From Candidatus Hermodarchaeota archaeon (GTDB lineage: Archaea; Asgardarchaeota; Hermodarchaeia; Hermodarchaeales; Hermodarchaeaceae): a stretch of DNA of 36,387 nt. The stretch lies in assembly GCA_016840065.1 (NCBI GenBank), contig JAEOTB010000042.1, positions 1 through 36,387 on the forward strand. Direction: 5' to 3'. Below the pieces are notes generated by a model, which made no database searches, was not told where the DNA came from, and worked only from the letters and a program-made list of their open reading frames with translations. Position 1 is the stretch's first letter, and each line of letters opens with the position of its first letter. The translations under genes were made by a program, and so were the position numbers. Shown here piece after piece: positions 4,084 to 35,613 of this stretch.

Positions 4084-4731
4084 CTAATCCCGTTTAATCA
4101 TTGAAATGGAATCTGTTGGACAACTGGAAACACAGACTCCACAGCCGAAACATTTTGCTGCGTCATAGACAAGGTCACCCTTCTCAAATTGACGAGCTTG
4201 GAAGTGACAGCGATCCACACAAACTCCACAGCTTAAGCAGGTCTCAGAGTTCTGTGATGCAACTAGGGCGGATGCTGCGACTGTATCAGGGACATCGAAT
4301 CGCATCAGTCCGCTGAGAGCATGACAGCAACAGGCACAGCAGCTACAGATGATAAAGGGTTGGGTGTCACCCTTCATTGTGTAAGCAATATGAACTAGTC
4401 CTGCCTCGTGCGAGCGTTTCAGTGCGTCCACTGCTTGTTCAATGTCTACCTTTCGGTATTTTCCCTGCTTTATCACGAGTTCTGCCTCTTTGTCTAAGTT
4501 GAGACAAACATCTAGGGGTGCATCACACTTCTGTAGGGATTTCCGGCACCCACAATCTCCTAACGCAATTTGAGTAGCATTACGGAGAATCTCCTCAACT
4601 TCATGGAGGTCGAAGATCCGGGTTTTCCCCTCTAATCGAATGTCGACAGGAATCGTCACTGCCGTCATCGTTTCCATTTCACTTACAATCTCTTCTCGGG
4701 TCCAGTCTTCCTTTTCCGGCATAGTATTCAC
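4084..4731 (-). CDS. 4Fe-4S dicluster ferredoxin-domain protein
   Basis: CLSCGVCVDRCHF and CFGCGVCVSSCP motifs; N-terminal Cys cluster CGCR...C...C...ICSCCACCCH. Confidence 0.88.
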   Translation of the reverse strand: MNTMPEKEDWTREEIVSEMETMTAVTIPVDIRLEGKTRIFDLHEVEEILRNATQIALGDCGCRKSLQKCDAPLDVCLNLDKEAELVIKQGKYRKVDIEQAVDALKRSHEAGLVHIAYTMKGDTQPFIICSCCACCCHALSGLMRFDVPDTVAASALVASQNSETCLSCGVCVDRCHFQARQFEKGDLVYDAAKCFGCGVCVSSCPTDSISMIKRD

Positions 4732-4775
4732 ACAGCAGTTACTGAGGAGAATAGGTTCTGTTTAATAATTTTCGT

Positions 4776-5381
4776 TTATTGATTGCGGCGTATCTGAATA
4801 CTACCATCTCTTTCGAGTGTGGTTTCGAGCCGTATCGTATGCATACCGGATTCTATTTCGAAGGTGAATTCACCATGGGCTTTCCAGATCTTATCCCCTC
4901 CTTCCAGTTTTGACCTGAAAACTAGAAGTAAACTAAATTGATGTTTTCCTAGCCCAATGGATCCATCGAATATGAGAAGCTCCTGTTTTTGAGCTAGTGT
5001 CTCATCTATCGAAACGGTGATTGGTTTATCGTCGAGGTGTACATACGCGCCTTGTAACACTAGTCCATCCACTTTGTTGAGGTGTAGCAATCGTAGCTTG
5101 GCCCCCCCTGGTACGCGATAGGTTAGTAGATGTTTTCTTAATCCAGCTGCAATCTGTTCAGGCATCTTTTGTATAGGACCGTTACTGAAGAACTCTTCAA
5201 ATGTCTGGAATCCCCCGAAATAACCTCCCCCAGACTGGACAGACCAATCTGTACCAACATATGTCAGTCCTGAGTGTTTGATGTGGACCTCCATCCAATG
5301 ATCCTTTTCCTGAGTGAAGTACCATTTCAATTCTAGTGGAGGAACCTGTGAGTAATCCCAGATTATCTCGTCTTCGCTCAT
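4776..5381 (-). CDS. Hypothetical protein
   Basis: ~200-aa globular-looking ORF co-oriented with neighbours. Start placed at MSEDEIIW (5381); the ORF track extends it to 5438. No recognised motif. Confidence 0.65.
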   Translation of the reverse strand: MSEDEIIWDYSQVPPLELKWYFTQEKDHWMEVHIKHSGLTYVGTDWSVQSGGGYFGGFQTFEEFFSNGPIQKMPEQIAAGLRKHLLTYRVPGGAKLRLLHLNKVDGLVLQGAYVHLDDKPITVSIDETLAQKQELLIFDGSIGLGKHQFSLLLVFRSKLEGGDKIWKAHGEFTFEIESGMHTIRLETTLERDGSIQIRRNQ

Positions 5382-5465
5382 TTTTTGGTTGACCAGCCTA
5401 TGACTATGCTTTAGGTCAGAGATTAAGTATTTTATCATCCATGGAGTAACACAGTAAAGTGTTAG

Positions 5466-6230
5466 GTGACACTTGTGACGAATCTTGTCAGAGCAATCAA
5501 AGAATTCTTAGATGAACGTGGTGCCGCCATTATTGGCACTGTACCTTCCTCTGAGGTGAAAGACGCGCTTCAAATCAGTGGCACCTCCTTGATGGAGAAG
5601 GCTCAGTCAGTGGTGTGCTTTGGGTTCCCACTCCCAGAAGGCATTTTCAAAACAGCTGCTCTCAGAGAATCACATTATTGGCGGGCGGCTAATATGCTGT
5701 ACCGCCGCATCGATTTTCTAACCCTCGACGCCGCCAACTTTCTTGAAATCAAGGGACACCTTAGCTTGCCTTTGTTTACATGTTTTCCCCAGTACACAGA
5801 GCGTCCACGTTTTATCGGCGCTGCTCAGTTAGTTCCCGTTGCCGTGGCTGCTGGATTGGGTGGATTGGCTAAATGCGGACTTTTGTTATCAGATGATTTT
5901 GGGCTTCGCTTACTTATTGGCGGAATCATCACAACGGCTAATATTAGCCTCAAGCGACAAGAGACATCGGTGGAGTGTCCTAAAGACTGTTGGAAGTGCA
6001 TCGATGCCTGTCCAGTTAAAGCTATTAGCCGAACTGGTAAAGTTGACCATGAAAGCTGCCTACGCCACTCTACGCGCAACCCCCTCTTCACTGAGTATTC
6101 TCGAGATAAGGCTCTTAGAGAAAAATACGGATTCGATCTACTTCTGAATGTCCTTGGTGCCGAGGACCATTCTATGTACACCTGTATCGAGTGTGTCCGA
6201 GCCTGTCCAAAAAATAGTCCCAAACGCTAG
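5466..6230 (+). CDS. Epoxyqueuosine reductase (QueG)-like 4Fe-4S protein
   Basis: AVAAGLGGLAKCGLLLSDDFGLRLLIGGIITTA, CPKDCWKCIDACPVKAI and CIECVRACP, as in QueG/reductive-dehalogenase-fold proteins. Confidence 0.82.
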   Translation: MTLVTNLVRAIKEFLDERGAAIIGTVPSSEVKDALQISGTSLMEKAQSVVCFGFPLPEGIFKTAALRESHYWRAANMLYRRIDFLTLDAANFLEIKGHLSLPLFTCFPQYTERPRFIGAAQLVPVAVAAGLGGLAKCGLLLSDDFGLRLLIGGIITTANISLKRQETSVECPKDCWKCIDACPVKAISRTGKVDHESCLRHSTRNPLFTEYSRDKALREKYGFDLLLNVLGAEDHSMYTCIECVRACPKNSPKR

Positions 6231-6316
6231 TATCAGATTCAACGTTATTCACCGAAAGTGAAATAAGCTTCGACCTCGTATTCCTCAGTGCCTATAAACC
6301 AGGATTCGTGAGTACA

Positions 6317-6583
6317 ATGCCTGTTGAAGAAGTTGAGAAGAGATCAGGAAAGACTGAGCCTTTCGTCAGAGAAAAGATAGTCGTTGCCTGCGTGAAGGCT
6401 GGCGCTTCTCCAGAAGAAGCAAGACGAATTGCAGACCTTGTTGCGGATACCCCAGATAGGAGAGTACGAAGCGAGACCATTCGTGGACGAGTGCTTAAAG
6501 AATTAGGCCGCAGCAGCCCCTCTGCCAGGGACAGTTGGCTATCATATGATAAGTCAAGAGGAAGAGCTCTACCACAATTCTAG
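6317..6583 (+). CDS. Stand-alone ATP-cone domain protein
   Basis: VEKRSGKTEPFVREKIVVACVKAG...SETIRGRVLKEL fits the ATP-cone consensus (V.KRdG..e.Fd..KI). ATG at 6317; ORF open from GTG 6308. Confidence 0.85.
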   Translation: MPVEEVEKRSGKTEPFVREKIVVACVKAGASPEEARRIADLVADTPDRRVRSETIRGRVLKELGRSSPSARDSWLSYDKSRGRALPQF

Positions 6584-6716
6584 AACAAAACACAAAGAAA
6601 AACAACCCGGGTGTCTCAAGGATTATTTGCAACTATTGAGACTGGAGAAACGTTCTTGTCAATTCCGTGCATAGTTCTCAAGCGTTAATGTTTTCCCATC
6701 ATTACCTAAGCAGATT

Positions 6717-6796
6717 GGGGCAGTGCCCGCCTATGATGCAGGAACCAAACACCAAACTAGATTTAGTTTCCTGTTTGGGTAGGTTTTGGACAACTG
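6717..6796 (+). mobile_element. Orphan TnpB right-end / omegaRNA 3' module (no ORF)
   Basis: GGGG.AGTGCCCGCCTATGATGCAGGAACCAAACACCAAAC...TTGGGTAGGTTTTGGACAACTG aligns without gaps to 1627-1706. Confidence 0.85.
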
Positions 6797-6841
6797 AAAC
6801 GTTTATTCTATGCAGCGTAATTTGTGATTGGTGGTTTTGCT

Positions 6842-7999
6842 ATGGATAATCGAAGTCCAAGTGATTATAGGATTGGTTTCTTACTCAACCCTATTGCTGG
6901 GCTTGGTGGAAGGGTGGGACTGAAGGGAACCGATGGTGTAATAGAGGAGGCGCTGCGTCGGGGGGCAGTCCCTATCGCGCCTGAGCGAGCACGCCAATTC
7001 TTCGAGACCCTATTCAGGTTAGTGCCGGCAGCATCTAATGCAAGGTGGATAACATGCCCTGCGCCTATGGGTGCTGGAATTACACAAGCTGCAGGAATTA
7101 CGGCTGAGGTGCTTCCGATGACCCTAGACGCCCCAACAACGGCAATGAATACTCGAGAAGCGGTTAAACTTCTTCTGGAGTCTAAAGTCGATCTTATCGT
7201 GTTTTGTGGTGGTGACGGCACCGCCAGAGACATCCTAGACGCCCTGCCAGATCCTAATGCAGTATTAGTTCTTGGAATCCCTGCAGGAGTCAAGATGTAT
7301 AGTGGCATCTTCGCTTTTTCAGCTGCGGCTGCTGCGGGTGTTGTTGCCGATTGGTTACTTGGAGCGACCCAAGTCCAGGATTTTGAGGTAATGGACGCTG
7401 ACGAGAAGGCAATCAGAGAGGATAGATTCGCAGTGAAGTTGTACGGGTACATAAGAGGACCACTCGTACCTGCTAGGATGCAAGGAGGGAAAATGGTTTC
7501 ACCCTCCTCAATCGATGAACAGGAGAACCAGGAAGCCGTCGCAAGGACCGTTATTGAAAAGATGGTGCCAGGTGACTGGTACATTCTCGGTCCAGGTACA
7601 ACAGTGCGGGTTTTAGCTGACCAACTGGGTATGGCGAAAACCCTTCTAGGCGTGGATTTGTATCGGGAGGGCATTATACACCGAGACGTAAATGAACAGC
7701 AATTACTAGAGAAGGTGACCGATTTCCTCCACGCATGGATTGTCGTTTCACCCATTGGGCACCAGGGAATGCTTTTCGGTCGAGGTAATCAACAGATTAG
7801 CCCTGACATAATCCGCCGCATTCCACCCGAACAAATTATAGTAATAGCTACTCATTCCAAAGTGAACAGCCTTGCTGAACGAGGGCTCCATGTAGACACA
7901 GGTGACCCAGAAGTGGATCGAATGCTCAGCGGCTACATCCGTGTGCTTGTAGATTATCGAACATGGCGGATGCTCAAAGTAAAAAACGGCACTCAATAA
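6842..7999 (+). CDS. ATP-NAD kinase / AcoX-like family protein
   Basis: IGFLLNPIAGLGGRVGLKGTDG, VFCGGDGTARD, GIPAGVKMYSGIFA, LFGRGNQQISP, VDTGD. ATG at 6842 (ORF open from 6824). Confidence 0.9.
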   Translation: MDNRSPSDYRIGFLLNPIAGLGGRVGLKGTDGVIEEALRRGAVPIAPERARQFFETLFRLVPAASNARWITCPAPMGAGITQAAGITAEVLPMTLDAPTTAMNTREAVKLLLESKVDLIVFCGGDGTARDILDALPDPNAVLVLGIPAGVKMYSGIFAFSAAAAAGVVADWLLGATQVQDFEVMDADEKAIREDRFAVKLYGYIRGPLVPARMQGGKMVSPSSIDEQENQEAVARTVIEKMVPGDWYILGPGTTVRVLADQLGMAKTLLGVDLYREGIIHRDVNEQQLLEKVTDFLHAWIVVSPIGHQGMLFGRGNQQISPDIIRRIPPEQIIVIATHSKVNSLAERGLHVDTGDPEVDRMLSGYIRVLVDYRTWRMLKVKNGTQ

Positions 8000-9565: not shown

Positions 9566-9665
9566 AAACATCAATTACTACTTTCTCAACCTGTCGAGAA
9601 AGTAATTTTGATATACGCTAACCTTAAAGCACCAGTCTTAGATAATATCTGTTAGGTGTTCAGCT

Positions 9666-10736
9666 CTGTTTCACCAAATCTATATCATCAGCAAGAACGG
9701 TCCACTCCTCTTTGAGCGCACCTTCATAAAGGGCCGGACCTCCGCCGACCCAGATCTTTCCTCCGGACTCATCACAGCACTATATCATTTCACGAAGGAC
9801 ACCATGGAAGAAATGATTAGCACCGTCGGGATGGAGGACGTCAAGCTGATCTTTGAGGAGAGCGAGACGATTATTTTCGCAGCCACCGTTGATACGCGTC
9901 TACCTGACAGTGACGCGATGGCTGTGATGGCCCGTGTTCGCGACTACTGGATCCTGCACTATGGCGAACACAAGGACGGGGCTGTGGACCGGACTAGATA
10001 TATGAGCTTCGGAATGGATGTCGAGCGAATCATTGTTGATAATTTATGGTGGCTCGGTGAGGGGAGGAAATTCAGTCTTCCAAACCAAGTACGCTACCTT
10101 AAGGAGACCATCTCGAGGCCCAGCCGCTGTGTGGGTGCCAGATACCTTGGTTGGAGCTATATCTTGACACCAATCCTCATTTCAATTGCGACCCTCCTTG
10201 TATCTTATTATTTGGGTGGTCAAGTCATCGGATGGACATTCAACTTCATCGACATACCAATGCTTGGGCATCTTATCGCTATGGGCTTCAATATCTTCTC
10301 GACATGGCTGATAATGCCCGTCATGACTGCCGCTATAAACGGTAGGATGGGAACCTTGCGAGAAGTTATCACATCTTCTGGATATGCGATGATATTTCAG
10401 CTAGGACTATTCTTGGTCGCTTCACGCGGATGGTTGACCCTGTTCCTAAACCCCATAACCGCAGGCGCGTTCTCAACATTGACAGCAGCACAAAAGATTG
10501 ATACCCTCAACAGCGTCGGGTTAATTGCTGCGGCGATTTGGCAGCTCCCGGCTACCGTCCTCTTGTTCGCATGGTTAGTTCTCTACGCGTATATCACATT
10601 CAATATCCAGCGGCCTAAGCCCCTCAATCATGTATTGGCTGTAGGTATTTCCTTTGTCTTCCTTAATTTGGTCCAATCAGTCATCTACTGGTTCTTCCTG
10701 GGTGTATTCCCGCCTTCAGTGATCTATGGTCCCTGA
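9666..10736 (+). CDS. Longin-like domain fused to a 5-TM Yip1-like domain
   Basis: Frame is open from 9642. CTG at 9666 (after AGGTG) adds LFHQIYIISKNGPLLFERTF...DPDLSSGLITALYHFTKDT upstream of the tracked ORF (9804), completing a longin-type beta-beta-alpha-beta-beta-beta-alpha pattern. The C-terminal half has 5 hydrophobic helices with Yip1-like LKETISRP and NGRMGTLREVITSSGYAMIF. Confidence 0.7.
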   Translation: MFHQIYIISKNGPLLFERTFIKGRTSADPDLSSGLITALYHFTKDTMEEMISTVGMEDVKLIFEESETIIFAATVDTRLPDSDAMAVMARVRDYWILHYGEHKDGAVDRTRYMSFGMDVERIIVDNLWWLGEGRKFSLPNQVRYLKETISRPSRCVGARYLGWSYILTPILISIATLLVSYYLGGQVIGWTFNFIDIPMLGHLIAMGFNIFSTWLIMPVMTAAINGRMGTLREVITSSGYAMIFQLGLFLVASRGWLTLFLNPITAGAFSTLTAAQKIDTLNSVGLIAAAIWQLPATVLLFAWLVLYAYITFNIQRPKPLNHVLAVGISFVFLNLVQSVIYWFFLGVFPPSVIYGP

Positions 10737-10880
10737 TTGTTCCTAGGGTGTGGCAAGACCTCAAAAAGGTGCATCAAAGCTCAGACTCTAGCAACCAAGT
10801 TTCTAGTGGACTTTGTACCTTATTATCAAATATGAAGGTTCTGGGGAATTAATCGTCAAAGATTGCAAATAATAGAAGCA

Positions 10881-10918
10881 GAAAAAGAGGAGAGAGGGGA
10901 CCCCTGAAGGCCCCCTTT
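10881..10918 (-). terminator. Hairpin plus pyrimidine/U tract downstream of large paralog 1
   Basis: Minus strand AAAGGGGGCCTTCAGGGGTCCCCTCTCTCCTCTTTTTC. Confidence 0.6.
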
Positions 10919-10946
10919 ACCAAGGTTAGTAGTTGGATTCTTTGGG

Positions 10947-13900
10947 TTACGACTCTAGCCAGTAATCACTGACCGGGTCGGTGCTTCTCTTGCCATATTC
11001 GGAACCTCGGTTCCGGGCGTTCATCACTACCACAAGAACCAAGATGATTGCGATTGCTACAACCACTGCGTACAACACGAATATACTCGGTATAAGGATT
11101 TCAGGAGGCAGGAATCCGTCACCAGGATCGCCATCGTCGCCACCAGAAATCACCATATCCAAAGCCGTTGTATATATTCCGAAGGATGGGTCGTTGTCGA
11201 TGCTGTAGCCACCCCAATTCGGGAACGCTGAGAGCATGAAGAAGAAGGTGCTCTCCATCTCCCATTGAGATACTGAGCCGCTAGTATCTGATTGGTACAT
11301 CGCGCTGAATGCTCCCATAGGAACTGAAGCAGCGGTGCTGTTGTAAGTTCCACCGTCAAAGCCCCAGACATACTCTTGCCCACCCATTGCGACTTCTGCG
11401 AAGGTCCTGCCTTCTGCTCCAAACATGTAGACGTCGCCGATTTCTGTTTCGTCGTTGCTGCCGGATACTGGTGTGTCATCGATGGTGAATTCTGTGTAAG
11501 AGAAGGTGGATAGCTGTCCAAAGTAGGATATTGCTAGGCTACGTCCTTCAAGGACCGAGTTATCGAAGTGGTGGAGTGTCCAGTCGCCGATATATTGATC
11601 CACTTTTATTTGGATGAGGTTGTTATTGGGATCGGGGTTCTCAGGTGTATTAGCTAGAAGCATGTCGTAGTGGACGTTGAATGCCATCTCGTCGATGTTT
11701 GCTGTTGAGAGGGTATAGTCGAACATGGTTGCGTTTAGACCGAGTAGACCATCAGGTGATCCATAGTAGTCCCAGCAGCCCTTGACGCCGCTACCAAATT
11801 GTGATTGTACGGGGTAGAGTGTGCCATTGACATCATAGATACGTACACCGTATTCTATGGAGGTATTCGCAGGAACGGTGACTGAACCCGTATAACTAGT
11901 AGAGTCAAAGGGTAATGTGAATTCAACGCTGCCTATGCTGTCAATGAGGAAGAAGTGGGTGACTTCATCGCTGTCGACGAACCCGTCTGTGACTGTGAAA
12001 TCGGGAACACCGTTGCCACCGTATGTTGTGTTGTCAGTGAAGAGCAATAGTCCTGCAAATTCTGACCGGAAGTTCGCCCAAGTCGTTGAGTTAGAGTCAG
12101 TGGCTAGCATGAAGTCCTGTTGAGTGCCAAAGCCAAACCAGGACCATTCCCAAGTATTATCTTCTAGCCACCACCAATCATCTTGGAGCTGTTCCCAACT
12201 TCGGTTGGAGGACATCCAGGCTATACAGTTGTAACCTTGTGCAGGAATCATTTCAGTTTCGTTGGTCCATAGGAGGTCCTTGATTTCTGCCATCTCGACA
12301 GCGCTGACTGAAGACATATCGCTTGCATGGTACCAGTAGAACGTTTCGTTCCAGGTGTATGTGCAGGTCTCCGTGAAGAGGCCCATCCAGTTGCCTGAGA
12401 AGAAGACTTCGCTCAGTTCCCCTAGGTGAGGTGATGGATCGAAGATGAGTTCAACCCACAGAAAGTCATGAATCCATGATCGCTCGTCATGCCAGTTGAA
12501 ATGCTGCTTTACATAGTACTGGTCATCGGTTGTCTCGGTGTCTCCGTCAAGGTCCAAGGCTCCTTCGTCGGTGACCGCCCAGATTTCAGGCGTCCATCCC
12601 ATCCAAACCTCGCCGAGGATGAGTTGAGTAGGTTGCCATCGGCATGCGTGACCTATGTTGAAATAGTCCCCGCCTTGCCTGATGTAGTCTTCCCACTCAC
12701 CAGTTTCATTGTTTTGCCACCAGCGACCTCTTTGGGCATGTAGCCAAGGCCAATATGTTGCATCTGGTGCATCGTCTAGGAACTTGGCTTGGAAGGTGAG
12801 TTGAGAGAGGTCCTCACTAACATCAAATGCGATGTTGGTAACATCCATCATGTTTGGAAGTGGGATTGGCGATGAGCTGTTCTGTTCTGTTCTCTCAATC
12901 AGTGTCCAGTTGTAGTGTTCCCAAACCTCCCAAACGATGGAGGTGAATTGCTCCTGAACGGTAAGTGTAGTTATATTGAGTAGGATTCGGATATTCACAT
13001 TCATATTGGTGCTGTGTGTCTCATTGGACTCCCAGTAATAACCCCACAAGTCGTACTCCACTAATTCTAGTGCGGTGCGTTCACGCCACCAAATTGTGGA
13101 GTTATAATCGTATCCATCATGGTCGACGAGTTCACCAGTCGCGTTTAGGACTTCAGCAGGAGCGTATACTTCTAGTGAGATGTTGAACCACTGATTCCTA
13201 TCAACGTCGGTTAGGAGTTCTCCTGTAGTTGGGTCTTGGATGAAGGCATCGACTACAAAGTCGTGTAGTGCAAGGACGAGTCCATCCTGCATCTGGAAAT
13301 CATACGTCGGATCCGCAGGGACTCCCTCGATGTCGCATGTGCCCATATCACGTGGGTTCCAGGCCCATACACGGAAAGTGACTCCATAGTCATCCTCCCA
13401 TGGATCATAGCATATTTGGTCTGTGAAGTAACCTTGCCAGCGAATGGTGGTATCGCCTACAGGACCACTTTCACTGATGTTGAGGACATAGAAATCGTTG
13501 AGTATCGAGTTATTGATGATGAATCCGGGCTCATACCGCCAGTTGCCACCACCGTGTTCCCATGTCTCCCAAGTCCAGGTTGAGTTCTCATAGTAGCAGA
13601 AAACGTCAGTGACGCCCGAACTTGCATTGTAGGTGAATCCCAGTCTTGGTGATTCCCAGGACTCCCATGAACTCCATGTAGTGTATGGGTCGCCCCAATA
13701 ATCTGGCTGGGTTCTGTTGATAATCATGGTATAGTTCGAATTCCATGTTATGTCGGTTAATGAAAAGCTGGCAAATCCGATTGATTCAGTCATGTTCATT
13801 TCGAAGATGACTTGATCGAAGGCATCAGCATAACGAATTGGCTCATGTGCTGCGTTAAAAACGCCCATTGTGTACTCGGGCCAATTTTCAGGTTCCCACA

Positions 13901-14633
13901 TCCACCATTGGTCTTCTAGAGTGCATTCTAGGGCTATCGGTGGAAGAGGGACTTCGCCAGTGTAGCCATAACTGTACCAACCAGGGTTGATGTAGTTGCT
14001 AGCGTTGTCCATACAATGAGCCCAAGTGTTATACACACCAGCTGGGGCTGTGGTGTTGAAGTTCCCTACAAAAGTTACGTTTAATATGTCAGCGTCCTCT
14101 GAGGTTCCGCAAGCCCATCTGCTGAGTTCGAAGAACTCCTTTGGATCCTTTGCGCTAATCGGATCAGATGAACCAGATGGGTCGTTTACCATCTCGTAAA
14201 CACTGCTCCAGACATGCCACTCTGCGGGGCCAGTTTCAGGCACCCAATACTCTAGATAGAGATCAGCCCACATTGTGCCATTGCCCACATTTGCACCGAT
14301 GGCAGCTTGTTCAAGGTGAGTGGTACCTTCGAAGAACCGCTTCGGAATCACTAGAGTGAATTTGAGTGTATCTCCCCAGTTCACTTGAAAGTCATTGTCT
14401 TGGATGTTGGTGTCGTTATCGTAAGTGATTACTAGTTTGAGTGTCTCGCCGAAAAGCCACTCTTGATGTGAGCTATCCCATGTATCGTTTTGTGTTTCCT
14501 GCTTCCGCTCCCACAAAACATGAACAACGGGGTCGGTTGAGAGAGAAGTTTGAGCGTAAATAGCTACGGGAGCAGTAGAGAAGAAGGTTAACACTAGTAC
14601 AGAGATTGCCAGTACACTAACAATTTTTTTCAT
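10947..14633 (-). CDS. Large secreted type I membrane-anchored (glyco)protein, paralog 1; possible cell-envelope/S-layer protein
   Basis: Signal peptide MKKIVSVLAISVLVLTFFSTAPVAIYA, acidic Trp/Tyr-rich ectodomain with >20 N-x-S/T sequons, DLDGD motif, C-terminal TM helix, short basic tail ending DYWLES. Confidence 0.85.
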   Translation of the reverse strand: MKKIVSVLAISVLVLTFFSTAPVAIYAQTSLSTDPVVHVLWERKQETQNDTWDSSHQEWLFGETLKLVITYDNDTNIQDNDFQVNWGDTLKFTLVIPKRFFEGTTHLEQAAIGANVGNGTMWADLYLEYWVPETGPAEWHVWSSVYEMVNDPSGSSDPISAKDPKEFFELSRWACGTSEDADILNVTFVGNFNTTAPAGVYNTWAHCMDNASNYINPGWYSYGYTGEVPLPPIALECTLEDQWWMWEPENWPEYTMGVFNAAHEPIRYADAFDQVIFEMNMTESIGFASFSLTDITWNSNYTMIINRTQPDYWGDPYTTWSSWESWESPRLGFTYNASSGVTDVFCYYENSTWTWETWEHGGGNWRYEPGFIINNSILNDFYVLNISESGPVGDTTIRWQGYFTDQICYDPWEDDYGVTFRVWAWNPRDMGTCDIEGVPADPTYDFQMQDGLVLALHDFVVDAFIQDPTTGELLTDVDRNQWFNISLEVYAPAEVLNATGELVDHDGYDYNSTIWWRERTALELVEYDLWGYYWESNETHSTNMNVNIRILLNITTLTVQEQFTSIVWEVWEHYNWTLIERTEQNSSSPIPLPNMMDVTNIAFDVSEDLSQLTFQAKFLDDAPDATYWPWLHAQRGRWWQNNETGEWEDYIRQGGDYFNIGHACRWQPTQLILGEVWMGWTPEIWAVTDEGALDLDGDTETTDDQYYVKQHFNWHDERSWIHDFLWVELIFDPSPHLGELSEVFFSGNWMGLFTETCTYTWNETFYWYHASDMSSVSAVEMAEIKDLLWTNETEMIPAQGYNCIAWMSSNRSWEQLQDDWWWLEDNTWEWSWFGFGTQQDFMLATDSNSTTWANFRSEFAGLLLFTDNTTYGGNGVPDFTVTDGFVDSDEVTHFFLIDSIGSVEFTLPFDSTSYTGSVTVPANTSIEYGVRIYDVNGTLYPVQSQFGSGVKGCWDYYGSPDGLLGLNATMFDYTLSTANIDEMAFNVHYDMLLANTPENPDPNNNLIQIKVDQYIGDWTLHHFDNSVLEGRSLAISYFGQLSTFSYTEFTIDDTPVSGSNDETEIGDVYMFGAEGRTFAEVAMGGQEYVWGFDGGTYNSTAASVPMGAFSAMYQSDTSGSVSQWEMESTFFFMLSAFPNWGGYSIDNDPSFGIYTTALDMVISGGDDGDPGDGFLPPEILIPSIFVLYAVVVAIAIILVLVVVMNARNRGSEYGKRSTDPVSDYWLES

Positions 14634-14727
14634 TTCTATTGTCTCCTAACAAGTATAGTCTTATACTAAACCTCCTCGAATCGCAACTTAAAAGGACGCC
14701 CGTTCAATCTCAAGCAAAGAGACATTT

Positions 14728-14744
14728 ATTGCGAAAAACCCAAT
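14728..14744. promoter_or_regulatory. Imperfect palindromic operator upstream of paralog 1
   Basis: ATTGCGAAAAACCCAAT, 95-111 bp upstream of the start; 14/17 identical to the perfect palindrome at 18668-18684. Confidence 0.55.
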
Positions 14745-14804
14745 CGGAAATGGACGCCAACGAGTCACCTTCATGAAAGCATTTCTCGATCCTCAAAGGA
14801 AGGG

Positions 14805-14845
14805 AAAATAAGAAAAAAGAGAGGGAAGGGGACCGCGTCCCCTTT
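14805..14845 (-). terminator. Hairpin plus U tract downstream of large paralog 2
   Basis: Stem AAGGGGAC/GTCCCCTT (14826-14844) followed on the minus strand by CCCTCTCTTTTTTCTTATTTT. Confidence 0.6.
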
Positions 14846-14860
14846 ATTCTCGCTGGAAGG

Positions 14861-17800
14861 CTAGTCAGTTACTTTTGGTTCGCTTTCAATCCAGTAGTCG
14901 TGCTCCGGTTCTCTTGCAGTCTTGCCTTTTGACGGTCCTCGTCGTCTGATGTTGACCATGACCACCACGGCAACGATGGCAACAATAGCAGCAAAAACTA
15001 CTATTATGACCAGCAGAGTTGGGTCAAAGCCTCCATCGCCACCTGTGACAACCATGTCGAGAGCGGTTGTGTAGATGCCAAAGGAGGGGTCATTGTCAAT
15101 GGAGTGACCATCCCAATTCAAGAAACTGCTGAGCATGAAGAATAGGGTGCCACTTATCTCCCAGCTCGCAACGGTAGTACCATCGGAGGCCTGATACATC
15201 GCGGAGAAAGCACCGAGTGGAACTGTGGCTGCAGAGCAATTGTAGATTCCTCCATCGCCACCCCAGAGGTACTCTTGCCCGCCCATCTGTATTTGTGCGA
15301 AGGTTCTACCCTCTGCACCGAAGGAATACATATCACCTATTTCGCTGTCGTCGTTGTTTGTGCCCACAGGCGTGTCATCCACACTGTATTCAGTGTAAGT
15401 CGACGTGGACAGATCGCCAAAGTACGCAATGCAAAGGCTGCGTCCTTCAAGAACCGCGTCTTCAAAGTGGTGCAAGGTCCAATCGCCAATGTATTGGTCC
15501 ACCTTGATGCTGATCAGATTGTTGTTGGGGTCAGGATTAGCTGTAGAGTTGGCAAGATGAACGTTATAGTTGACATCAAAGGCCATCTCATCGATTGTTG
15601 CAGAGGAAAGGGTGTAGTCGAAGGCTGAAGCGTTCAGCCCAGCAATACTATCGGGTGAGTTGTAGTAGTCGTAGCAGCTGTGAATTCTGGAGGAAGCAGT
15701 TGTATGGACAGGGTAGAGGGTTCCGTTAACATCGAAGATCCGGACACCAAAGTTAATATCTTGATCAAAGTCCAAGTCCACGACTAGGGTTTGTGTTCCA
15801 CTCGATTCCGTGGAGCCGAAAGGCATTGTGAACTCGATGTCATCAACATTATCGATGAGGAAGTAGTGGGTTACCTCGTCAGAGCCCACGAATCCGTCCT
15901 GAACTGTGAAATCTGGTATCCCGTTTCCGCCATCGATTGTAGTATTGTCAGTGAATAGCAGCAGTCCAGCGTATTGAGAGTGGAATCGTGCCCAACTGGT
16001 TGAATTGTTGCTGGTGGCTAATTCGAACCGTTGCATTTGTCCAAAGCCGAACCATGAGCATTCCCAGGTATTGTCTTCGAGCCACCAGTACTTGTCCTGG
16101 AGGTCGGACCAAGAATAGTTTCTCGCAAAGCATGCGACACCGTTGTAGCCTAGAGCGGGTATTTGTTCCCCAAGGTCCTGCCAGACAAGGTCTTGTATTG
16201 TAGTCATTTCGGTCGCATTTACTGGTGACATGTCATCAGCGTGGTACCAGTAGAATTTAGCATCCCAAGTGTAGGTCATGGTATCAGTTACCAGTCCCAT
16301 CCAATTCGTAGAGTTGAACTCATCGCCAACATCTTCTGGACCTGGTGTTGGATCGAAGACTATGTGAACTACTAGGGAGTCTACTTCTCGTCGGATTTCA
16401 TCATGCCATGTGGAGACTTGTTTGACGAAGTATTGGTCGTCGAGAGTTTCCAAATCGCCGTCTAGGTCTAGTGCTCCATTGTCGCTGATTGCCCACACTT
16501 CTGGAACCCAGGTGTAAACGCTGCCAAGGACAAATGTTGATGGCGTCCAGTAGGTCTTTGCGCCTAACCCGAGCCAGTAAGTGAAGTTGGCTGCGAGTTC
16601 CCAAGAACCAGTCTGGTTTGTCCATATGCTTTGGTTTTGATAGACGTCGAAGTACCCCCAGTACCTAGCCTCGGGTGCGCTGGGTAGGAACTCTACTTGC
16701 AATCCGAAGTAGGATTGGTCTTCTCCAAGTTCATAGACGACATTATTAGCATTCACCAAGTCAGGTAACCCAGAGTATGAGTCCTGAGAAGTATAGTTCA
16801 CCAATGTAGAGGAGTAGATATCGTAGGTCGCGTTCACCAAATTGCAGTATTGACCAATCACCGTCTTTGTGTCGAGATTGATGATAACCTGGATTGTGAC
16901 ACTTGTCAACCAGTTGTGCGTAGTATTGGCATGATTAGAATATCCGTAGAGAACATAGGCTGCATAGCTAGTGTTTAGGTCTTCACGGATGAAGGTGTCT
17001 GGATAGCCTAGATGTGAGGCGTTAAAGGGATCGCCTTTCTTTTCGATTCTTTCTATGGGAGCGTAGATGTCGATGGAGACATTGAACCAGTCGTTGTAGC
17101 CTAGTTGGTTGACGAATGCGTCACTGGGGTGGTCGATTAGATATCCATCGAGTATGATATCGTGGAGCGCAAGGATGGTTCCGTCTGAACGTTGGAATTC
17201 GTAGCCCGGCTCACCAGGGACACCGTCAATGTTTTGTGTGCTCCAATGGCGAGGCTGCCAAGCATATATTCGGAATGTCGTGCCGTAGTCGTCGCCCAGA
17301 TAGTTGGGATCTAATAGACCAGGAGTGGAAGTTGAGCCGCCGCCCGAGTTGTCTGTTGTGTTGGCGAGGTGTATGCCACGCGCACAGACGTTTGTTGTAA
17401 AGTTTGTATACCAACGTACTTTGTAGGGATTTACCAGGCCGCTGGTAGCAGCGTCGAAGTCGACAAAGTAAGTGATATTAGTATTATCTACATAGGGTAT
17501 GTCGTAACCTACCCATTGTCCGTAGCTACCACCATAATCCTGCCAGACCCAAGTCCGGTTGTAGTAGAAGATGAAGGCTTCTGATGTGTCGGTTGACTGA
17601 TTGTAATAGAAGCCCAAGTGAGGTGGTTGAGGTACCTCGTGGGAGGTCCATGTTGTGGTTGGGATGTGTGAATAATCTGGATAGGTCCAGGTCATATTCC
17701 TCCAGTAGGACTGCTGTTCCCAGGAGGCGACTTGTCCTATCTCAAAAGCGGCAAATCCAATTTCTTGGTCCATCACCATCTCAAAGATAACGGTTTCATT

Positions 17801-18577
17801 AGCGTCAGCATACCTGATTGTGTCTAGGGCCTCATTGAGGATACTGAAATCATATTTTGGTGGTTTTTGCCACATCCACCACTGATCTCCAAGAGCACAT
17901 TCTAGGGCAATTGGAGGCATTGGAACTTGGCCCGTCATGCCGTAGTTGTACCAGCTCGGAGTAAAGGTATTGCTGGCATTATCCGTTGCATAGGCCCAAG
18001 TTTGATAGACACCGATAGGTGCTGATGTGTTGAAGCCTCCTGTGAAACTAACATTCAGGAGATGTGAGTCAGCTGTGACGTCGCAGCTAGCAGGGTAGAT
18101 ATTGAAGAATGCTGCAGGGTCACTAGAAGAGGACGCTGTGCTGTCGTAGATACCGCTGAAAACATGCCATGTATTACTTGGAGCGTGATAAAACATGTGA
18201 AACCGTGCATGGGTTCCTTCGGTTTCAAATGATGCGCCAACTACAGCAATTTCCAGTTCTGTTGAACCTTCAAAGAAGCGCTGGGGAATCATCAATGTGA
18301 ATGTTAGGGGGCTTCCTCGACCGGCCCAGTAGTTACCCTCCTCGATATTGATTCCACTCTCGTTAATTATCACTAGCTTCATTGTTTCGCCAAAGACCCA
18401 CTTCTCATAGTTGCAATCCCAGGTGTATTCCTCTGATTCCTGTATGTGTCTCCAACCAACGTGGAGAAGAGGATTGCTTGAAGGTGCTGTGGTTTGAGCA
18501 AGAACCATTGGTGGGATTGTTGCGATACTCACTAGTAACAGTAGAGAGATACTGAGTATACTCGTTATTTTCTTCAT
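14861..18577 (-). CDS. Large secreted type I membrane-anchored (glyco)protein, paralog 2
   Basis: Aligns end to end with 10947-14633 (FGETMKLVI, PPIALEC, GALDLDGD..DDQY.VKQ, AGLLLFTDNTT, NPDPNNNLI.IKVDQYIGDWTLHHF, SIDNDPSFGIYTTALDMV); signal peptide, C-terminal TM, tail with DYWIES. Confidence 0.85.
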   Translation of the reverse strand: MKKITSILSISLLLLVSIATIPPMVLAQTTAPSSNPLLHVGWRHIQESEEYTWDCNYEKWVFGETMKLVIINESGINIEEGNYWAGRGSPLTFTLMIPQRFFEGSTELEIAVVGASFETEGTHARFHMFYHAPSNTWHVFSGIYDSTASSSSDPAAFFNIYPASCDVTADSHLLNVSFTGGFNTSAPIGVYQTWAYATDNASNTFTPSWYNYGMTGQVPMPPIALECALGDQWWMWQKPPKYDFSILNEALDTIRYADANETVIFEMVMDQEIGFAAFEIGQVASWEQQSYWRNMTWTYPDYSHIPTTTWTSHEVPQPPHLGFYYNQSTDTSEAFIFYYNRTWVWQDYGGSYGQWVGYDIPYVDNTNITYFVDFDAATSGLVNPYKVRWYTNFTTNVCARGIHLANTTDNSGGGSTSTPGLLDPNYLGDDYGTTFRIYAWQPRHWSTQNIDGVPGEPGYEFQRSDGTILALHDIILDGYLIDHPSDAFVNQLGYNDWFNVSIDIYAPIERIEKKGDPFNASHLGYPDTFIREDLNTSYAAYVLYGYSNHANTTHNWLTSVTIQVIINLDTKTVIGQYCNLVNATYDIYSSTLVNYTSQDSYSGLPDLVNANNVVYELGEDQSYFGLQVEFLPSAPEARYWGYFDVYQNQSIWTNQTGSWELAANFTYWLGLGAKTYWTPSTFVLGSVYTWVPEVWAISDNGALDLDGDLETLDDQYFVKQVSTWHDEIRREVDSLVVHIVFDPTPGPEDVGDEFNSTNWMGLVTDTMTYTWDAKFYWYHADDMSPVNATEMTTIQDLVWQDLGEQIPALGYNGVACFARNYSWSDLQDKYWWLEDNTWECSWFGFGQMQRFELATSNNSTSWARFHSQYAGLLLFTDNTTIDGGNGIPDFTVQDGFVGSDEVTHYFLIDNVDDIEFTMPFGSTESSGTQTLVVDLDFDQDINFGVRIFDVNGTLYPVHTTASSRIHSCYDYYNSPDSIAGLNASAFDYTLSSATIDEMAFDVNYNVHLANSTANPDPNNNLISIKVDQYIGDWTLHHFEDAVLEGRSLCIAYFGDLSTSTYTEYSVDDTPVGTNNDDSEIGDMYSFGAEGRTFAQIQMGGQEYLWGGDGGIYNCSAATVPLGAFSAMYQASDGTTVASWEISGTLFFMLSSFLNWDGHSIDNDPSFGIYTTALDMVVTGGDGGFDPTLLVIIVVFAAIVAIVAVVVMVNIRRRGPSKGKTAREPEHDYWIESEPKVTD

Positions 18578-18667
18578 GATAGAATCCCCTTAGGGACTAA
18601 TTTCTCCTTCTAGATTGTATTCCGCCATTTTTAACGGTAGGAATTCCGAACACGATTAACAGAAAAT

Positions 18668-18684
18668 ATTGCGAGAATCGCAAT
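18668..18684. promoter_or_regulatory. Perfect palindromic operator in the divergent promoter region
   Basis: ATTGCGA-GAA-TCGCAAT, 91-107 bp upstream of the paralog 2 start and upstream of the divergent Sec23/24-like gene. Confidence 0.65.
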
Positions 18685-18812
18685 GGATGAAAGAACCCAC
18701 AAATAAACACCAGATTCAACAAGAATCGGGCTAGAAGACGACAGGCTTATGTACGCGTTTTTCAGAAGCAACTTTGTATCCTAGTCAAATAAAGACGGGG
18801 GATTCCAATAAC

Positions 18813-20435
18813 ATGTTTAAAACAAGCTCAACATACTTTCCACAAGAAACAAAGCTCCTCAAGGGAATGCCTTGGGTGGGTCGCATCAGCTTCGGTGACC
18901 TTGTAGAGAAGGTCGAAGAAATCGCAACCAAGCCCATCATGTGCAATTCCTGTGGGGGAGCTCTGACTAACCCAGGCATCATACAGATTGACCCCAGTAA
19001 GGGCAAATATTTTCTCTGCGAGTTCTGCGGAACCATGAATATCATTCCGAAGGACTTGATGCCCGGAGCCGACATTTCAGAATTCATGCTTGGTCGGCTA
19101 ACTGGTACCGCAAAACCCATCACCGAAGACACACTTCTTGCTGTCATCGACGTCTCTGGGTCAATGAGTGGCGGAAAACTCGAAGCAGTAAAGGAATCAC
19201 TAATCCGAACCATCACCGACTTGGGTGTTAACCAGCCTGACACAACATTCGGATTGATTACTTTCACAACCGACGTTATGATCCACGACGAAGAGATGAA
19301 GGAAATCCTGAGACTATCAGGAGATACAAGATACAGTGTCAAGGAAATCACCAAGAAAGTCGAGAAGGCTCTTGGTAAAATCAAGTTCAAGCCACTGAAG
19401 AAGACAAGGAAAAAGTGGGTAGAAGGCATTGAGAAACTTCGCCATCAGAGCGCTACCGCACTCGGTCCTGCAATGGTCGCAGCATATGTCCTTATGAAGA
19501 AGCGAGGTGGACGCGTCATCCTCCTCACCGACGGGCTCGCCAATGAAGGTGTCGGACGACTTGAAGGAGGCTCCAGCCAAGAGGGCGCAAAGCTCTATGA
19601 GAACCTGGCTGCAGAAGCAGCAAACGCAAGCATAATCGTTGACGTAGTCGGTATCAAGGACCCCAGCGCCTTCATGGCACTAGAAGCCCTAGCTATAATG
19701 TCGATGGAGACCGGTGGCACTATGTTCTATGCTGATAGAAGTGACCTTGCTTCAGCCCTTGGAACTAGCTCTAGGGAGAAAATCGTTGCCCGTGGAGTAC
19801 GACTACGAGTTATCACACCGAAAGGTGTAGAGATAGCTGAAGTCAGTGGGTTGGGTGCTCCCAAACCCGAAGCGGTTCGTGAAGGACTCCGTCTGGGATC
19901 AGTCACCGCTGACCGTGAGGTTTACGTACGCTTGGCCCCCAAGCGCAAAATGAAGGTGGACGAGATTCCCATCCAACTTCAGGTCTCCTACACGGATGAA
20001 GACGGAGCGCAGCGGATGCGTGTCTTCACCCGGCGTGTCAAAGTCACTAAAGAAGCTGACCAGATTGTCGAAACCATGGATGCTGAGTTGCCTACCACCT
20101 TTGCCGTCCAAAGGGCTGGTGAGGAACAGTATCGTGGTGATGTTCGCCGTAGCCAAGAAATCCTAGAAGAGGCGCAGAGAGCCATGGAATCTGCGGGTGC
20201 CAGCGCACCTCCTGCACTAGCTAAAGCTATGAGGAGGGCTAGTCGCGTCCTTGAAAGGGAGGCTGAGGAAGCTGAAGAAGTGGCGGTGCGTCAGAAGGCC
20301 GAATCAGCTCGGCGAGCACCGATGCGGGCAAAACAAGTGGCTGCCATCGCCGACGAAGACGCCGCCGGAAGCATGCAGCGTGCCCGAAGCTCCAGTAAAG
20401 CCCTCTTCGAAAATGCTGAAGAGGAAGAGGAATAG
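18813..20435 (+). CDS. Sec23/Sec24-like protein: Sec23/24-type zinc finger, vWA trunk, beta-sandwich and helical tail
   Basis: PIMCNSCGGALTNP...YFLCEFCGTMNIIP (zf-Sec23/24 spacing), VIDVSGSM (vWA MIDAS), ATALGPAMVAA...GGRVILLTDGLANEGVG, ETGG, VARGVRLRV, IQLQVSYTDEDGAQRMRVFT (Sec23/24 beta-sandwich-like). ATG at 18813 preferred over TTG 18774. Confidence 0.8.
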   Translation: MFKTSSTYFPQETKLLKGMPWVGRISFGDLVEKVEEIATKPIMCNSCGGALTNPGIIQIDPSKGKYFLCEFCGTMNIIPKDLMPGADISEFMLGRLTGTAKPITEDTLLAVIDVSGSMSGGKLEAVKESLIRTITDLGVNQPDTTFGLITFTTDVMIHDEEMKEILRLSGDTRYSVKEITKKVEKALGKIKFKPLKKTRKKWVEGIEKLRHQSATALGPAMVAAYVLMKKRGGRVILLTDGLANEGVGRLEGGSSQEGAKLYENLAAEAANASIIVDVVGIKDPSAFMALEALAIMSMETGGTMFYADRSDLASALGTSSREKIVARGVRLRVITPKGVEIAEVSGLGAPKPEAVREGLRLGSVTADREVYVRLAPKRKMKVDEIPIQLQVSYTDEDGAQRMRVFTRRVKVTKEADQIVETMDAELPTTFAVQRAGEEQYRGDVRRSQEILEEAQRAMESAGASAPPALAKAMRRASRVLEREAEEAEEVAVRQKAESARRAPMRAKQVAAIADEDAAGSMQRARSSSKALFENAEEEEE

Positions 20436-24911: not shown

Positions 24912-25442
24912 ATGTTGACAGTGATTAGTAAGCGTGATGCACGACGTAGTTTGCGTTCGAGCCTTTTGGACCGCGTTCGTAACAACCCCAGAGATGCTGG
25001 GCTTTATTCACTTTCCAAGCGGAAAGTACGAGTGCGATTAGGGAAGCAGAGTTTGGTGTTGCGTGAATGCGACCCGTTGGTAGCAGAGATTGATCGAATT
25101 CTTGGTGAGTATCGCGCACAAGTGCAGGCATCAATGGAGCCTGCTCGTGTTGTCAACGGAAAAGCAGAACGCAGGGCTAAGCGTCTACTCCATGAGATTG
25201 CTAGGAAGCACGAACGTCTCCGCCTTGAAAACGAAGAGGTTTTCGTTACTAGCACCAACGGTGGTCGGTACGTGATTTCCATTAAGGGCGGTACTGTGTA
25301 TTGGCTTCGTGGTAGGACCCGACGATATGTTTGTGTTATCGCGGACTATTGGTACAAGGGAGAGCGCCTCCCCCAGGCAGATCTTGTTATCGCTATCGCG
25401 CTCACCATTGCTTATGCCCCAAGCCTCATCCACACCCTGTGA
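24912..25442 (+). CDS. Uncharacterised protein, tandem paralog A (conserved Cys and LPxAD motif)
   Basis: Aligns end to end with 25523-26053. The true start may be GTG 24921 based on RBS spacing and the paralog. Confidence 0.85.
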   Translation: MLTVISKRDARRSLRSSLLDRVRNNPRDAGLYSLSKRKVRVRLGKQSLVLRECDPLVAEIDRILGEYRAQVQASMEPARVVNGKAERRAKRLLHEIARKHERLRLENEEVFVTSTNGGRYVISIKGGTVYWLRGRTRRYVCVIADYWYKGERLPQADLVIAIALTIAYAPSLIHTL

Positions 25443-25522: not shown

Positions 25523-26053
25523 GTGACTAGTAAACGTGCTGTACGACGAGGAATGCGTGCAAGCCTACTGGACCGTGTTCGTAGAGACACTAGAGCCACT
25601 GTAATCAAAGTGGTTTCTAAACGCAAGGTGTTGATTGGACATGGTAACCTGAGTCTAGTGTTGCACAACACTGACCCTCTAGCTGAAGAAATCGAGCAGA
25701 TTTATGATGCATACCATGAGAAGCAGATAGCTGAATGGGAGGCTGCTCAGGCCCTCAATGCCGTCAAGGCCGCATCTCAGAGGGCCAAGCGTTTACTCCA
25801 CGAGATTGTACGGGAACACGATTGCCTTACTATTGAGGATGGAGACGTTATCGTTGATAGTGCAAATGGTCGGCGATACGCGATTTCGATCAAGACCGGC
25901 TCCACCTACCGTATTGGGAGTAAGAAGCGCCGCTTTGTCTGCGTACAGGTACCCTACTCCTTTCCTGGTGGTCATGTCCTTCCACTTGCGGACAGGATTA
26001 TTGCTAAGGTACTTACAATCGCCTATGCCCCTCGCTTCATCAATACTCTTTGA
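25523..26053 (+). CDS. Uncharacterised protein, tandem paralog B
   Basis: Shared blocks SLLDRVR, SKRKV, DPL..EI, RAKRLLHEI, NG.RY.ISIK.G, VCV, LP.AD..IA..LTIAYAP..I.TL; GGTGA 9 nt before GTG. Confidence 0.85.
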   Translation: MTSKRAVRRGMRASLLDRVRRDTRATVIKVVSKRKVLIGHGNLSLVLHNTDPLAEEIEQIYDAYHEKQIAEWEAAQALNAVKAASQRAKRLLHEIVREHDCLTIEDGDVIVDSANGRRYAISIKTGSTYRIGSKKRRFVCVQVPYSFPGGHVLPLADRIIAKVLTIAYAPRFINTL

Positions 26054-34090: not shown

Positions 34091-34250
34091 GAGAAGAAAC
34101 CCGACACCGTTGTCCAAATCCTATCCAACTTGGGCGTAGGGCCCGTGTTGGTGTTTGGTTCCTGCATCATGGGCGGGCACCACCCCCTGGGGGGTTGTCA
34201 CCTCCCGCCTCAGCCAAGCGTTTAGGGTCTCCGCCCAACTGGCGGCGACC
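34091..34250 (-). ncRNA. Predicted TnpB omegaRNA scaffold plus guide (TGTCGGGTTTCTTCTC...)
   Basis: Reverse complement matches 1563-1706 and ends GATTTGGACAACGG at 34107. The guide extent is estimated. Confidence 0.7.
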
Positions 34251-35392: not shown

Positions 35393-35613
35393 ACTCCGAC
35401 TTGTTCTTACTAGTCTAAGTGAGTCTTTCACATTTTAACTCCCGGTATTACCCAGCACTAGACCTTACGATATAAGTGGAGGTCTTCCAGAGGAACTAAT
35501 CGATAATAGAGGGTAACCGACGAGTGGGTGTTTTATTACACTGGATTTTTACGCTACAAAGAACCATTCACATCTGTAGGTAAATTCCATCTAAAGAGTA
35601 TTAAAAGAAGAAG

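Follow-up and report, generated by a model that had tools for sequence, protein, structure and literature searches.

A longin-like/Yip1-like fusion gene linked with DYW-tailed surface glycoprotein genes beside an inherited Sec23/24-like gene in one Asgard archaeal family

In eukaryotes, Sec24 binds short motifs in the tails of cargo proteins as well as the longin domain of Sec22, and Yip1 acts in the budding of coat protein complex II (COPII) vesicles. For the origin of the eukaryotic endomembrane system it matters whether the Sec23/24-like proteins of Asgard archaea already dealt with membrane cargo, a question on which a locus of a Candidatus Hermodarchaeota archaeon (assembly GCA_016840065.1, contig JAEOTB010000042.1) seemed to offer rare genomic evidence. 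Within the 36,387 nt stretch of DNA analysed here, henceforth the window, lie a gene encoding a fusion of longin-like and Yip1-like domains (P0024), two genes for giant surface glycoproteins with an Asp-Tyr-Trp (DYW) motif in their cytoplasmic tails (P0002 and P0003), and a Sec23/24-like gene (P0004). A preliminary description had proposed that these constitute a single membrane-sorting module. The component parts of that proposal and the association of fusion with giants are upheld by our analysis, whereas the link between a Sec23/24-like coat and its cargo is contradicted by cassette losses and by the lack of co-distribution. On balance, it appears probable that the locus comprises two units that are neighbours by descent: a Sec23/24-like gene belonging to a known family, and a cassette of fusion and giant genes, which is a new combination and the products of which would act as partners.

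The published Asgard Sec23-like proteins are all without a gelsolin domain, and are reported to have a helical domain in their predicted structures and to bind an Asgard Arf weakly and independently of nucleotide; their gene neighbourhoods are not discussed in the same work (PMC11914678). P0024 resembles the Yip1/YIPF proteins (PF04893) in having a cytosolic N-terminal part followed by a compact bundle of around five transmembrane (TM) helices, but differs in that its N-terminal part is probably folded as a longin-like domain and in having no Pfam Yip1 sequence match. The Yip1 family is found in all three domains of life (Eme et al. 2023, as cited in bioRxiv 10.64898/2026.10.28.762692). The N-terminal part is similar, by a profile match over around 95 residues, to the longin domains of MON1/Fuz, the TRAPP subunits Bet5 and Trs23, and the AP sigma subunits, and the same type of domain also heads many Asgard proteins of 133-723 amino acids (aa; for Asgard longin-domain proteins see PMC10933270). 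Unlike the known examples, it is joined to a membrane domain rather than to a GTPase, TRAPPC3 or a coiled coil, and its match has an E value of only around 1e-3. No description of a fusion between longin and Yip1-like domains was found in the literature searched, within which both the fusion and its cassette appear to be undescribed.

The window represents contig C17 of a 2.6 Mb genome (G000) that is 84% complete, and the DNA of this contig is present in marine-sediment metagenome runs from one study. Listing and translation of the open reading frames (ORFs) confirmed that the four genes are adjacent at the coordinates originally given; those of the cassette are as follows.

9666..10736, + strand: longin and Yip1-like membrane protein P0024 with five TM helices, approximately 356 aa if initiated at CTG 9666, with ATG 9804 as the earliest canonical start
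9663..10067, + strand: longin-like cytosolic domain of P0024, residues 1-135, from profile matches to the PDB
10140..10733, + strand: Yip1-like multi-pass TM domain of P0024, with an AlphaFold2 (AF2) predicted local distance difference test (pLDDT) score of around 80 and an ESM-Atlas fold match
10947..14633, - strand: giant surface glycoprotein paralogue 1, P0002, 1228 aa, with signal peptide, C-terminal TM segment and glycosylation sequons
10959..10967, - strand: DYW codons of the paralogue 1 cytoplasmic tail, invariant in 11 orthologues
14861..18577, - strand: giant surface glycoprotein paralogue 2, P0003, 1238 aa, with signal peptide, C-terminal TM segment and glycosylation sequons
14891..14899, - strand: DYW codons of the paralogue 2 cytoplasmic tail, from the tail alignment
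15023..16585, - strand: conserved ectodomain module of P0003, residues 665-1185, a galactose-mutarotase-like beta-supersandwich

Across a sample of 400 Asgard genomes, full-length orthologues of P0024 were found only in cassette-bearing genomes, all other matches covering the longin domain alone, and these orthologues always adjoin DYW giants (G000, G001, G005, G012, G018, L060, L061 and the contig of P0029). In L061 the fusion gene is inverted, and still adjoins the giant. Fusion and giant have been gained or lost strictly together in at least eight contigs, spanning 54-85% identity. The tail of the giants, around 30 aa of cytosolic sequence, has the pattern N-x-R-R/K...(E/K)P-x-x-D-Y-W in 11 of 11 orthologues from the family to which the window belongs (f1), with D-Y-W both invariant and at a fixed spacing of 18-19 residues past the membrane. 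This tail was found only in f1; the homologues in Thor, Loki and Hod genomes end after the TM segment in RRK or RRR. We also predicted the complex of full-length P0024 (43-row alignment) with the TM segment and tail of the giants (11 rows), which scored 0.35 against 0.01 for the best of three controls, a result that amounts to weak support: in a benchmark, 58 of 80 solved complexes attained this mark, as did two of 110 mismatched pairs, with only seven of those 80 complexes, and both of the passing mismatches, scoring 0.60 or lower. Contacts agreed between runs at 83% or more, with a partner pLDDT of at least 64. Strict co-occurrence, adjacency maintained through an inversion, the lineage restriction of the tail and the weak pass in complex prediction therefore support a tight link of the fusion with the DYW giants.

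Should the two be partners, the longin-Yip1-like protein would be a dedicated membrane partner of the type I surface glycoprotein, acting as an adaptor, chaperone or anchor, and would contact the TM segment, the DYW tail or both at the cytosolic face; its longin domain might also provide a small GTPase with a platform. The physical binding that we infer, and any role in trafficking, would make fusion and glycoprotein a concrete candidate pair for the study of membrane-protein handling in Asgard archaea.

The surroundings of the cassette indicate that it is dispensable. The family shares a conserved backbone of housekeeping genes, with those for NAD kinase (NADK), DUF1844 and an iron-containing alcohol dehydrogenase (Fe-ADH), then a slot, then the Sec23/24-like gene and, further along, genes for acyl-CoA dehydrogenase, OPT and GCAxxG. 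The slot holds the fusion gene and one giant in G005, G012, G018, G011 (where the contig is cut) and three metagenome contigs; two tandem giants characterise the genus of the window (g1), the duplication being common to the genus. The slot is empty in G017, G008 and G006, in which the Fe-ADH gene directly adjoins the Sec23/24-like gene, and in G007 and G009 it is occupied by a gene for a 571 aa protein of the beta-lactamase family (PF00144; L023 7005-8720 and L030 4978-6693). No giants were found anywhere in these five genomes, which are 83-91% complete, using two queries that do match in relatives of theirs. Hence the slot is a variable position for envelope-related genes. In a maximum-likelihood tree of the Sec23/24-like proteins, the cassette-bearing lineages are basal (L061, then genus g1) and G007 and G009 group together; from this topology the cassette is ancestral, and has been lost at least twice while the Sec23/24-like gene stayed in place. 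Branch lengths of the Sec23/24-like proteins are similar with and without the cassette.

Such variability could also be taken to mean that fusion and giants have no functional link, the giants being variable envelope proteins in a hypervariable slot and the fusion a housekeeping membrane protein or GTPase platform that happens to share the same insertion or deletion. The contents of the slot, whether cassette, beta-lactamase-family gene or nothing, accord with this explanation, as does P0069, the sole distant full-length homologue of the fusion (33% identity). Its gene lies among housekeeping genes, between those for primase and HMG-CoA reductase, with neither a giant nor a Sec23/24-like gene nearby, from which it follows that the fusion family does not require an adjacent giant. 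A linker motif, NLWWL..G.KFS..NQ..YL.E...RPSR, is kept both in P0024 orthologues and in P0069, implying a core function independent of the giant, and the complex score is a weak pass. Further points likewise weigh against a partnership of fusion and giant as one of two separate units. The complex score adds a small increment, as any TM bundle may accommodate a hydrophobic helix in such a model, and natural proteins without relation to the pair served as controls; the cassette-bearing sequences all come from a single family, and so reflect few independent events; the genomes compared are 72-91% complete; and the longin fold is suggested by weak profile matches and the Yip1 likeness by one structural match. 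In addition, the Sec23/24-like gene lies within 4 kb in every cassette-bearing contig, an arrangement in which a three-way link is compatible with synteny alone. Nevertheless, fusion and giants that were unconnected would not be expected to be gained and lost strictly together across contigs of such divergence, to remain adjacent through an inversion, or to have the DYW tail confined to exactly those lineages with the fusion next door. We therefore regard the absence of any functional link as rather unlikely, and retain the reading of two units with partnered fusion and giant.

The other unit would consist of the Sec23/24-like protein, with its zinc finger, von Willebrand factor A (vWA)-type trunk with an intact metal ion-dependent adhesion site (MIDAS), probable beta-sandwich and putatively helical, acidic C terminus.

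18813..20435, + strand: Sec23/24-like protein P0004, 540 aa from ATG 18813, with Pfam and PDB matches; the alternative start TTG 18774 gives 553 aa
18578..18812, no strand: intergenic region separating the divergently oriented genes for paralogue 2 and the Sec23/24-like protein, 196-235 bp

The identification of P0004 as Sec23/24-like, proposed at the outset, is well founded. Pfam Sec23_trunk (PF04811) matches with an E value of 1.4e-14, its 54.7 bits exceeding both the cut-off of 27 and the 40.1 bits of the generic VWA family, and all ten matches in a PDB sequence search are to Sec24A/B or Sec23; hence the protein does not group with generic prokaryotic vWA proteins. The Sec23_BS match (PF08033; E value 2.8e-7) is just below its cut-off, at 31.5 against 33.5 bits, and that to zf-Sec23_Sec24 (E value 0.006) has 16.9 bits against a cut-off of 25; the four cysteines of the CxxC...CxxC zinc finger are invariant in eight orthologues from three families. 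The same eight invariably possess a complete MIDAS, composed of DxSGS, the T of TALGPA and the D of LLTDG (window positions 19143-19540, residues 113-240 approximately). Human Sec24A does not keep the full site, as it aligns with DVSHN at the first motif and has a Q opposite the last MIDAS aspartate, leaving two positions missing. P0004 shares the zinc finger and vWA-type trunk, and probably the beta-sandwich, of both the Asgard Sec23-like proteins and eukaryotic Sec23 and Sec24 (PDB 1M2O, 3EGD), but is 540-553 aa long where the eukaryotic proteins are around 750 aa. No match to the gelsolin domain, which in eukaryotic Sec23 provides the Sar1 contact and the GTPase-activating arginine, was found in P0004, which ends at 553 aa; the published Asgard members likewise have none. 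The C-terminal 120 aa are rich in Ala, Glu and Arg and end in a conserved acidic LFE-D/E run, with no match to Pfam Sec23_helical. The gene is single-copy in the genome. We take P0004 to be a typical representative of the Asgard Sec23-like proteins already in the literature. No evidence for a Sar1-type partner was detected at this locus, and in agreement with the preliminary description no small GTPase homologue was found in the window with the query used.

Given this identification, the locus could be envisaged as a proto-COPII module, in which the Sec23/24-like protein selects the giants through their DYW tails and engages the longin domain, all four genes forming one sorting system. The proximity of the Sec23/24-like gene to the giant in all cassette-bearing contigs is in keeping with this, the two being mostly divergent: the divergent arrangement across a shared intergenic region seen in the window recurs in G012, G011, L060 and L061. 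An invariant short motif in the cytosolic tail is also what COPII cargo would possess, and by analogy with integrin I domains an acidic residue of the tail could conceivably be coordinated by an intact MIDAS. However, the cassette was lost on at least two occasions with the Sec23/24-like gene kept at the same site and its divergence unchanged, and in G005 the giant is parted from the Sec23/24-like gene by three unrelated genes, of which two are of the TldD/PmbA type and the third matches no family. Nor is there co-occurrence of coat and cargo across the 400 genomes: Sec23/24-like genes are present in 146 of these, without tracking giants, DYW tails or the fusion. In Thor-like genomes Sec23/24-like genes and giants are both present, but unlinked and with giants that have no DYW tail, while Odin-like genomes contain giants with no Sec23/24-like gene found, and distant Sec23/24-like genes do not adjoin giants. 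The preliminary description was to be refuted by an adjacency not conserved in relatives, and this is largely the case, as the adjacency exists within one family only. Hence a link to the Sec23/24-like protein is unsupported, as the adjacency is inherited within a single family, the cassette has been lost repeatedly and the distributions do not coincide, and we consider a four-gene proto-COPII system very unlikely. It seems highly improbable, too, that the locus preserves an archaeal triad of cargo, adaptor and coat predating COPII, in which the longin-Yip1-like protein captures the tail and the MIDAS-bearing Sec23/24-like protein is then recruited.

Elsewhere, the only conserved co-directional neighbours of Sec23/24-like genes are those encoding roadblock proteins and small GTPases, which were observed in a Thor-like family spanning several genera (f6), a further point against the proto-COPII module. 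Two co-directional Roadblock/LC7 genes follow the Sec23/24-like gene in all eight f6 genomes sampled, and a small GTPase gene, with Arf as its best Pfam match (E value approximately 2e-14), comes next in seven of them. An SMC gene, identified by eye from the translation, is divergent upstream in five of the eight, where this region is included in the fetched stretch; a 1196 aa ORF in this divergent position, considered as a candidate surface protein, was rejected as its translation looks like SMC, no family search having been run. This type of arrangement occurs in none of ten samples from other families. In the genome of the window, a cluster of SMC, two roadblock genes, a GTPase gene and a third roadblock gene is located on contig C61, without a Sec23/24-like gene. 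Hence the Sec23/24-like gene heads the roadblock/GTPase cluster in f6, whereas in the family of the window it is beside the cassette, with the cluster on another contig. The f6 neighbourhood is therefore a better place to seek partners of Sec23/24-like proteins.

L026 6157-9741 (also L027 and L051-L056), co-directional: run of Sec23/24-like, roadblock and GTPase genes in the sampled f6 genomes
L058 (G000:C61:19500-31000) 4506-7022: roadblock/GTPase cluster of the window's own genome, beside SMC

The domain assignments of P0024 are reasonable but not proven. A 36-sequence profile of residues 1-135 had the longin domain of MON1 as its best match in the PDB (E value 1.2e-3), followed by the sigma subunits of AP-3 and AP-2, Bet5, Trs23, SRX, delta-COP and VAMP7; longin-fold proteins account for more than 20 of the top 35 PDB matches. 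Using the full-length profile, only one weak match was returned, to the TRAPP subunit Trs33 (E value 0.37). A sensitive search with residues 1-135 retrieved 39 relatives, proteins of 97-696 aa with this domain at the N terminus, several of them having sub-threshold matches to Pfam Fuz_longin_1. The AF2 model of the full-length protein, built with 13 close orthologues, failed to model the longin part (pLDDT below 50 over residues 1-90), only the TM half being confident at around 80. The top ESM-Atlas structural match of this half is to a bacterial cluster whose members are 100% Pfam Yip1 (PF04893), with a template modelling (TM) score of 0.65 when normalised by target and 0.39 by query over 170 aligned residues. 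However, the PF04893 hidden Markov model (HMM) has no match at an E value of 1 or lower in either the whole protein or its TM half. Nothing exceeded the Pfam and NCBIfam thresholds, VIA-align of the model against the PDB returned only generic helical matches (Z score of 6.2 or lower), and an ESM-Atlas feature search gave no usable match. Thus the longin half of the fusion originally described is backed by profiles, at a weak E value, and the Yip1 half by one structural match against the verdict of the Pfam HMM.

The same longin-like N-terminal domain is also present in a 723 aa protein (L034 2582-4753; G017:C71), where around 550 aa of mostly coiled-coil-looking sequence follow it; this protein is kept in every genus g2 genome examined, in frames of 696-736 aa.

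Translation of P0024 appears to begin upstream of its first canonical start codon. Orthologues are around 360 aa long and the first 50 or so of their residues match the open frame 5' of ATG 9804, where an uninterrupted run of 46 codons shows 85% conservation with orthologues initiating in this region. The start codons of these orthologues are ATG, TTG or GTG and precede L-I/F-H-Q by two to three codons, but in the window no in-frame ATG, GTG or TTG was found upstream of ATG 9804, the only table 11 candidates between 9642 and 9668 being CTG 9666 and ATA 9642 or 9645. Of the earlier proposal that the gene starts at CTG 9666, the upstream coding sequence is substantiated by conserved codons, and the CTG itself is a possible start. 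Faulty assembly does not explain why a canonical start is missing, because contigs from three samples are letter-identical across this stretch.

The giants conform to the original account of two paralogous single-pass surface proteins sharing a short conserved cytoplasmic motif. P0002 and P0003 are 47% identical, and each has a signal peptide, a single C-terminal TM segment and 30 N-X-S/T sequons, compared with 11.3-11.6 (standard deviation around 3) in shuffled sequences. They thereby have the features of archaeal surface glycoproteins of the S-layer type, namely a signal peptide, a sequon-rich ectodomain and a C-terminal TM anchor. Searches with Pfam and NCBIfam found nothing above threshold, and a Foldseek search of the domain against the PDB produced no meaningful match (TM score of 0.24 or lower). 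However, the module formed by the C-terminal 520 or so ectodomain residues was modelled by AF2 with a pLDDT of 86 and a predicted TM score of 0.83, and VIA-align relates this model to galactose-mutarotase-like supersandwich domains with Z scores of 9-11.5. These include GLMP, mutarotases, glycoside hydrolases, the C-terminal domains of beta-galactosidases, polysaccharide lyases and the periplasmic domain of YidC. The module is common to Thor, Loki and Hod surface proteins of 742-2161 aa, and has matches in small Odin-like genomes too; the confident model would thus identify a surface-protein module of several Asgard classes as a galactose-mutarotase-like supersandwich. The model points to, without proving, a carbohydrate-facing role in the envelope.

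The top structural match of the module is GLMP in the GLMP-MFSD1 complex (PDB 8R8Q; Z score 11.5, root mean square deviation 5.2, 235 residues aligned). GLMP and the giants are alike in that they span the membrane once, are heavily glycosylated and are encoded, or act, together with a multi-pass protein; however, identity is just 8%, the Z score is within about 1 of many glycosidase and lyase supersandwich domains, and GLMP is only around 400 aa long. The resemblance to GLMP-MFSD1 is therefore one of analogy only, not of homology.

Two further pairs of related sequences were noted in the window. Tandem paralogues of 176 aa, with 49% identity and no Pfam match, are encoded at 24912-25442 and 25523-26053. 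Near the ends of the window, two ORFs of around 420-436 aa that are 77% identical lie in inverted orientation, at 427-1692 on the + strand and 34121-35431 on the - strand.

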